From Chthonomonadales bacterium (GTDB taxonomy: Bacteria > Armatimonadota > Chthonomonadetes > Chthonomonadales > CAJBBX01): a stretch of DNA of 64,000 bases. Every line of letters starts with the position of its first letter. Within the stretch, counting starts at the first letter, position 1. Made by a program: the position numbers. The stretch spans positions 224,001-288,000 of the forward strand of contig JBBIPC010000001.1 in NCBI GenBank assembly GCA_037443035.1, written 5' to 3'. Below are positions 21,001 through 22,183 of the stretch, piece by piece.

Positions 21001-22183
21001 TTGTGATCGGTGCTGTCGGACTGCTCGATCCTGGCAAGAACGGATTCGACGTTCAGCCCTCGCTCAGCGCATGCCTGTGTAAGCGTGGACTGACCCCCGC
21101 AGCAGTAATCGAGGCCAAGTTCTTCGAAGATGCGGGCTCGTGTCGGCCTTTCCAGAACGAGCTGGCCAAGTGTCTTGTCCTGTTGTCGATCGGACATCGT
21201 TTCCTCCGCGTTGGTATTCGCGCGTGTCTGCCTGACCCTACTTGGCGGCCTTGACCATGTAGAGCAGCATAACGGTCCTTGATCGGGCAAGGATCGAGTG
21301 CGGCATGTGCGCAGGCATCAACGCCCAGAAGCCGGCGTGCGCTTCGACCTTCCGATCACCGATGATAACGTCGGAGTCGCCAGCCAAGAGGTGGATCGTC
21401 GCCGGCACGGATGCCGTATGCTCGGACAGCTCCTGCCCAGCGTCGAAACCAAAGAGAACGACCTTCAGGTGCTCGTCGCTGTGGAGGGTCCTACTGATGA
21501 TGCCGTTTTCAGGTACCACGACTTCGCTGCTGAGATCCGCAAGTATTCGACTCTCGCTCATTTCATACTCCTGAGTTGGTTGCTCGGCTGTACGTGTCTG
21601 CCATGTTATATACGGACGTGCGAGTCCATTTATCACCCACTATCTCCAAACCGAGGTTGACACGAAGCAGACCTGTGCCGTATACTGCTCCTGTGCGAAC
21701 CGCTATTGTGGCGGTGTAGGCGCTCGTAGCTCAGCGGATAGAGCGGCAGGTTGCGGACCTGTAGGTCGGGGGTTCGATTCCCTCCGAGCGCGCGGCGTAG
21801 CCCACCGGTCCGACACGATTCGTCGGTCATTGCGCCCTCGTAGCTCAGTGGATAGAGCTGGGGCGTCCTAAGCCCTGAGTCGGGGGTTCGATTCCCTCCG
21901 AGGGCGTTCCTTTCTCCTAGCGGAGGGGTCGCATAGTGGACTAGTGCGCCCGCCTCGAAAGCGGGTAGGCCCTCAAGCCTCGCGGGTTCGAATCCCGCCC
22001 CCTCCGCCAGCTCCTCTGCCACACCTCCCCACCACAGGCCAGTTCGCCGAGTCGAGACGTGGACACCTGGAAACCCGCCAGGCACTTCCTACGTATCTAG
22101 ACTTGACATCAACGCACTAAAATCGAATAATAGAAACGCGCTAATGAGGGTGCGCATGTTACGCGCCCACATCGTGGAGGTAG

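Follow-up and report, generated by a model that had tools for sequence, protein, structure and literature searches.

The genome of a Chthonomonadales bacterium (phylum Armatimonadota) encodes a tRNA-Arg(GCG) in place of tRNA-Arg(ACG) and has no gene for the tRNA adenosine-34 deaminase TadA. Our reading is that CGN codons are decoded without inosine in this organism, that tadA was deleted from a tRNA cluster in which relatives still carry it, and that the phylum went through at least three switches to GCG; taken as a whole, we consider this reading highly probable. The GCG gene lies in what is here called the window, the whole stretch of 64,000 nucleotides that was analysed (contig JBBIPC010000001.1 of assembly GCA_037443035.1, positions 224,001 to 288,000). 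An earlier note on this DNA had proposed that CGN is decoded by G34, U34 and C34 tRNAs and without TadA. For this genome and the order to which it belongs, our survey agrees: no TadA was found in 53 further genomes from the order (0/20 in the same family and 0/33 in the rest), some of them assembled in 3–5 contigs. The survey as a whole covered 401 Armatimonadota genomes; families, genomes and loci are labelled f, G and L.

Arginine tRNAs and deaminases of the genome

The assembly (3.76 Mb, 61 contigs, 61.8% G+C) is rated 100% complete. ARAGORN made 48 calls over the whole genome, and the Arg set among them consists of gcg, ccg, tcg, tct and cct. The gcg call (window 21720–21793) represents a real tRNA gene, as the earlier note had assumed: the Rfam model RF00005 matches 21720–21792 at full length (model positions 1–71) with 68.3 bits, over the tRNA model cut-off, and the strand folds into a cloverleaf (-33.5 kcal/mol). 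The arginine identity elements of tRNA are A20, C35, G or U at position 36 and A or G at position 73, and all of them can be read off this gene (Table 1).

Table 1. Coordinates of the tRNA cluster in the window and of its putative promoter
Feature	Position	Strand	Remarks
Sigma-70-type promoter-like site	21657..21686	+	11/12 matches; upstream of the tRNA cluster; presumed function
tRNA-Arg(GCG)	21720..21792	+	anticodon 21753-21755, A20 at 21738, G73 at 21792; CCA not encoded
tRNA-Arg(CCU)	21834..21906	+	ARAGORN, Rfam; directly upstream of tadA in 27/31 tadA loci of relatives
14-bp spacer Arg(CCU)-Ser(CGA)	21908..21921	+	closed slot; relatives hold tadA at this place
tRNA-Ser(CGA)	21922..22009	+	ARAGORN, Rfam; directly downstream of tadA in 10/31 tadA loci of relatives

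The cluster is flanked upstream by a gene for an iron-sulfur repair protein on the opposite strand and downstream by dnaK-dnaJ. Promoter-like sites number two in 800 bp, against 0.3 expected; the second (window 22103–22131, 11/12 matches) lies ahead of dnaK at 22187.

The only acg call at default settings (C29:644-734, 91 nt) is false, since its stems are mismatched, the T-loop consensus is absent and Rfam gives no tRNA match to it at E<=1. The claim that the genome has no genuine tRNA-Arg(ACG) is borne out by this; the tandem repeat in which the false call was said to sit is not, as TRF gave nothing on C29:1-2500. Relaxed and intron-allowing ARAGORN runs produced scattered acg calls, none of which reached the default score except the one on C29. 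Real ACG genes of Armatimonadota were also compared with the genome by BLASTN. Matches were obtained with 14 of the 16 queries, in 14/14 cases best on tRNA-Arg(UCG) of contig C16, and only UCG, GCG, CCU and Val genes were matched.

This tRNA-Arg(UCG) (C16:90897-90971) is the predicted reader of CGA, a codon that occurs 12,640 times in a rough gene set of the genome. In this set, which comprises 2,745 genes with a length of at least 90 aa, CGN codons amount to 79,415, close to the approximately 83,000 stated before. Both mnmG and mnmE score over cut-off in the genome, so that U34 of Arg(UCG) may well be modifiable. The usual tRNAs are present with one exception (45/46); the missing one is tRNA-Ile(GAU), which means that this assembly is able to lose tRNA genes. 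Together with an Ala(UGC) gene at a contig start (G000:C21 133-208), its absence is presumably what a collapsed rRNA spacer would leave behind.

PF00383 detects three deaminases in the genome, one of ComEB/dCMP-deaminase type, one RibD-type fusion and one cytidine deaminase, none of which is TadA. The RibD-type gene (L002 676-1968, G000:C17) has its domains in reversed order, with the reductase first and the deaminase last. Because the NCBIfam TadA model had been a weak control in the earlier note, it was replaced by a profile based on 22 Armatimonadota TadAs, which was run on the six-frame translated genome. Its best scores there are 38.9 and 29.7 bits, both on known deaminase genes, compared with 183–214 bits on ten outgroup TadAs, and the best tblastn match for TadA in the genome has an E value of 0.001. 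The absence of TadA stands.

The tRNA cluster and the place of tadA

Arg(CCU) and Ser(CGA) are frequent neighbors of tadA in relatives (Table 1), and both enclose it in 9 of 31 loci. The full cluster can be seen in L099, where the order is Ser(GCU)-Arg(ACG)-Arg(CCG)-Arg(CCU)-tadA-Ser(CGA)-Ser(GGA); the outgroup Archangium (L356) has Arg(ACG)-tadA-Ser(CGA)-Ser(GGA). The window has 14 bp between Arg(CCU) and Ser(CGA), inside one contig and free of N, and contigs of two public runs (X1 record 1, X3 record 24) bridge this junction without an insert. The shares in the public RNA runs were small and say nothing about expression. The order GCG-CCU-Ser(CGA) also occurs in families f1, f2, f3, f14 and f47. 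Judged by its gene order, the window holds the apparent scar of a tadA locus and keeps Arg(GCG)-Arg(CCU)-Ser(CGA) of the full cluster.

The GCG genes of the phylum differ in their likely parents. In the six families beside f46 (f15, f21, f25, f33, f44 and f48), the genes are arranged as Ser(GCU)-Arg(CCG)-Arg(GCG)-Arg(CCU) at 12 of 12 loci. The GCG genes in these families are 0.82–0.93 identical to the CCG gene of the same genome (0.74 for the window gene), and all 12 bear the CCG anticodon-arm signature, which points to an origin from the adjacent CCG gene by duplication or conversion. GCG genes with CCG-like bodies are also found in f32, f18, f4 and f12, and those of f32, f18 and f4 occupy the ACG slot. 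The window-type gene (41 genes) has an arm signature of its own and, like ACG, is often found behind Ser(GCU). Its body resembles ACG (0.74), UCG (0.74) and CCG (0.72) to nearly the same degree, so that the sequence does not point to any of them as the parent gene.

Arg(UCG) and ACG have the anticodon arm in common. A UCG gene was matched in 64 of 80 genomes, and it occurs together with ACG and tadA in f10 (3/3), f37, f40, f45 and f49 (1/1 each) and f46 (1/2). It is not universal among ACG families, being found in 0/6 genomes of f6 and 0/3 of f30 and in none of f41 or f42. A state in which ACG, tadA, UCG and CCG are present together thus exists today. In such a state inosine would not be needed for CGA, and a takeover by a G34 tRNA would be cheap.

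From the gene content, the closed slot, the match between tadA and ACG across genomes and the non-monophyly of the GCG lineages (see below), we infer a decoding scheme, a U34 modification and an order of events. tRNA-Arg(GCG) would read CGC and CGU, tRNA-Arg(UCG) would read CGA (and CGG), probably by way of a U34 modification made by MnmE/MnmG, and tRNA-Arg(CCG) would read CGG. An ACG-like UCG gene would have taken over CGA to begin with, after which a G34 gene would have replaced ACG; TadA would then have been left without a tRNA substrate and tadA would have been lost last, by deletion from the full cluster described above. At least one such switch would have taken place in the deep-branching lineages to which this genome belongs, one in the sister group of f46, where GCG would have been copied from CCG, and one in f32.

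Distribution and number of switches in Armatimonadota

A strict GCG pattern was found in 229 of the 401 genomes, and ARAGORN confirmed 29 of 30 fetched loci. Many families were missed by this pattern and recovered by relaxed searches of 80 and 5 genomes. Among the 80 (76 of them formerly negative), 60 have a match with a pairing anticodon stem as judged by eye, 56 of them new, and 26 of 30 fetched loci were confirmed; four of the five further f2 genomes are positive. A GCG gene or pattern is present in at least 289/401 genomes and represents the majority state. This number is a floor, as about 90 pattern-negative genomes were counted from the strict pattern alone, and it takes in six f6 genomes with an extra, mostly array-borne GCG as well as a few unverified matches.

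The earlier note had taken the replacement to be common to the phylum, which it is not: tadA is kept in 39/401 genomes from 10 families (f6 22/27, f10 4/4, f30 4/4, f40 2/2, f46 2/2, and 1/1 each in f37, f41, f42, f45 and f49). The catalytic motif is intact in the 22 TadA sequences read; the NCBIfam TadA cut-off was passed by two of three tested, the third scoring 143 against 150. A core Arg(ACG) gene exists in 41 genomes (35 by ARAGORN, 6 by pattern). The two genes go together, with core ACG in 37 of the 39 tadA genomes and tadA in 37 of the 41 ACG genomes, and among the six exceptions are assemblies that are highly fragmented or without the flanking tRNAs as well. Four genomes of genus g52 in f6 (G019, G229, G161, G252; G019 is 95% complete) have ACG without a tadA match. 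Three of these also have no CCG and CCU matches and one stops at a contig edge, and the missing tadA is likely due to assembly gaps.

Upon inspection, the ACG pattern matches in G032 and G149 proved not to be full tRNAs, and ACG matches in four f14 genomes gave three fetched loci that all lie in tRNA arrays. GCG families contain 14 weaker deaminase matches, 11 of which end at profile position 105–106, as dCMP deaminase does; the three long ones we take, by motif, to be two guanine deaminase-like proteins and one dCMP deaminase-like protein. In one f6 genome, a single contig bears tadA twice, with 3.4 kb between the copies, both of which are intact (L121 and L504, G003:C273). We also observed large tRNA arrays with divergent bodies (L007-L012, L014, L016, L021, L025, L027, L064-L066), which contain Arg(GCG) in f6, a user of ACG, and Arg(ACG) in f14, a user of GCG; three of them list Ile(UAU) and one Phe(AAA). 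Such arrays may serve as a mobile reservoir from which other anticodons are drawn. Arg(GCG) is duplicated in tandem in L159 and L022 (f16, f29) and in L315 of a Ktedonobacter genome.

Trees were calculated from one protein (RpoB) under one model (LG+G4), with 76 rows and, with bootstrap, 26 rows. The smaller subset was chosen after the first tree had been seen, and AU tests refer to these 26 rows; f42 and f17 (partial RpoB), f36 (none found) and G449 (a duplicate) are outside the trees. Assignment to the phylum relies on named loci that fall within the RpoB clade. The window belongs to a clade made up entirely of GCG users; GCG is likewise the state of a second, small clade, and a third is mixed. 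Family f46 (ACG, tadA) is sister to the six GCG families (100/100), and f10 (ACG, tadA) is sister to f32 (GCG), again with 100/100. The AU test rejects GCG as one clade (p 5e-139) and likewise ACG (p 1e-40). We conclude that there were at least three switches to GCG in the phylum, by two routes, which is new; the two nested ones, in the sister group of f46 and in f32, hold whatever the root. The TadA tree recovers the families and, like the RpoB tree, the group f30+f37+f46+f49; monophyly of Armatimonadota TadA is neither shown nor rejected (p 0.16). When rpoB of 14 ACG genomes was compared with that of 43 GCG genomes, no shift in the use of CGN codons was seen (p 0.77 and 0.20), a one-gene test that fits a near-neutral switch.

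In the window's own lineage, loss is the more probable direction of change, on the strength of the shared slot, a TadA tree that follows the families and the root reconstruction in PMC6063277, where TadA is traced back to the root of the bacteria and losses prevail. The converse would be a phylum ancestor that already used GCG without TadA, with ACG and tadA regained in one branch and some descendants switching back; the window would then represent the old state and not a loss inside the phylum. Such a history agrees with the use of GCG without TadA in most Chloroflexota, Dormibacterota and Patescibacteria, with the window-type anticodon arm in many Chloroflexota GCG genes, with two GCG clades branching outside the mixed one and with a minimum of four changes on a 67-row tree with a mostly GCG outgroup, which fits one regain; G34 is also the ancestral condition according to PMC3239186. 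Against it speak the slot of tadA ahead of Ser(CGA), which Armatimonadota share with Chloroflexota and Archangium, and the Arg(CCU)-Ser(CGA) flanks, common to families with and without tadA; support is weak (91/87), moreover, for the root branch on which the mixed clade joins that of the window. We therefore regard an ancestral GCG state as improbable, though it is the alternative to be taken most seriously.

Other explanations fare worse. A single inherited replacement throughout the phylum, nearly unique among free-living bacteria, was the proposal of the earlier note and would account for GCG being the majority state; yet the families that keep tadA and the rejected monophyly of GCG speak against the single event, and the near-uniqueness is contradicted by Chloroflexota, where the state is common, and by published cases from other phyla. 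This makes the proposal very unlikely. It is hardly conceivable, finally, that tadA and an ACG gene are merely hidden in gaps of the 61-contig genome, a worry that the note itself had raised. The missing Ile(GAU) and the four genomes of f6 in which ACG is present but tadA is not, apparently through gaps, illustrate that such artefacts arise, but here the slot between Arg(CCU) and Ser(CGA) is closed in the contig and bridged in both public runs, TadA was found in none of the 53 further genomes surveyed from the order, and GCG-CCU-Ser(CGA) recurs in relatives. Loss of tadA from the cluster remains our preferred reading.

Inosine-free CGN decoding in other bacteria and its meaning

A scan of GTDB yielded at least 120 stretches, and all 80 matches listed are Arg(GCG): 27 from Chloroflexota or Dormibacterota, 26 from Patescibacteria, 10 from Spirochaetes, 4 from Armatimonadota and 13 from others. 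The G+C content is at least 60% in 25 of these 80 listed loci. Fifty of the listed genomes were tested for a TadA with a full active site, which only Archangium has, in a normal ACG cluster. Among 121 Chloroflexota, classified by eye, 103 have GCG, 10 ACG (one has both) and 9 neither, and full-length TadA is found in exactly the 9 ACG-only genomes. One unpublished genome (G440) is among the 80 and the 50 and another (G476) among the 121 and the 103; the conclusions depend on neither. The state can therefore no longer be called unique to one GC-rich, non-reduced phylum; nor, with Spirochaetes, Thermotogae, epsilon-proteobacteria and the CPR already in print beside Mollicutes, is it confined to very few bacteria.

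Fifteen GCG-using Chloroflexota genomes possess a TadA-like gene in which the catalytic Glu is changed to Val or Ile (L480-L484, L487-L491, L357, L359-L361, L363), located before Ser(CGA) in 14 of them; the 14 genes that were placed in the tree form one clade. The same Glu is missing from eukaryotic Tad3. The Chloroflexota genome G462 has an ACG gene on a CCG-like body (L458, G462:C75) as well as a GCG gene (G462:C310) and gives no full-length TadA match; its ACG tRNA is possibly an unedited A34 tRNA.

The decoding strategy as such is known. Borrelia, Campylobacter, Helicobacter, Treponema and Thermotoga use G34 at moderate or low G+C (PMC3711424), GCG is present in all sequenced Thermotogae and Spirochaetes (PMC8007984), and inosine loss has been analysed in five clade comparisons by Diwan and Agashe, to whom its cause in Spirochaetes remained unexplained (PMC6063277). 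Armatimonadota resemble these groups in that Arg(GCG) stands for Arg(ACG) and inosine is lost along with its target tRNA (PMC3711424, PMC8007984, PMC6063277); this genome differs in its G+C content, which is 61.8%. Also unlike those groups, both states coexist in Armatimonadota. The genomes of the CPR (Patescibacteria) are reduced, in contrast to the 3.76 Mb and 45/46 usual tRNAs found here. Their CGN anticodons GCG, UCG and CCG are exactly the same three, with no ACG, according to PMC8629427, which cites Rafels-Ybern 2019 for deep-branching bacteria.

The Mycoplasma pneumoniae group is alike in the gain of UCG, the exchange of ACG for GCG and the absence of TadA (PMC3711424, steps 1-5a). There, tadA and CCG were lost first, through a stage with unedited A34 (PMC3711424), whereas Armatimonadota keep CCG, have UCG beside ACG and an intact tadA in several families, and apparently derive some GCG genes from CCG and not from ACG. 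The marks of a Mollicutes-type route, ACG kept without tadA and CCG lost, do not appear in the present genome, in which CCG is present and ACG absent. To call TadA normally essential, as the earlier note did, is also too strong, as the B. subtilis gene is dispensable according to PMC10454642. The label "archaeal-style" holds for the anticodon set, which equals that of archaea, where A34 tRNAs and ADAT are absent (PMC8007984). It does not extend to an archaeal origin, which nothing here suggests: the window gene has its place in a cluster of bacterial type, and the genes nearest to it are from Armatimonadota, in a comparison whose rows comprised no archaeal tRNAs.

We found no statement on Armatimonadota in the passages searched, including those of PMC4227106, PMC13433404, PMC4041420 and bioRxiv 10.64898/2026.05.15.725136; Rafels-Ybern 2019 or the supplements of PMC6063277 may already list these phyla. 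Taken alone, the window is a range extension of a known strategy. The new elements are the closure of the slot, the coexistence of both states in the phylum, the route by way of CCG and the intermediate with UCG. The change of C34 to G that would lead from CCG to GCG is absent from the Mollicutes model, and the comparison removes the tie of the G34 strategy to low G+C and genome reduction.

We lean, with some reserve, towards the view that most members of a block of large phyla (Armatimonadota, Chloroflexota, Dormibacterota and Patescibacteria) decode CGN without inosine, that this state was reached repeatedly through a viable intermediate with ACG, tadA, UCG and CCG, and that at least one GCG gene arose from CCG by C34 to G and not by A34 to G. 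The textbook statement that bacteria use ICG fails for whole phyla. These organisms should also be free of TadA-dependent mRNA editing. Sister pairs with and without TadA, namely f46 and its GCG sister clade as well as f10 and f32, offer a way to assess the worth of inosine-34 and mRNA editing, and as the switch recurred and its intermediate can still be seen, the cause of inosine loss becomes open to testing.
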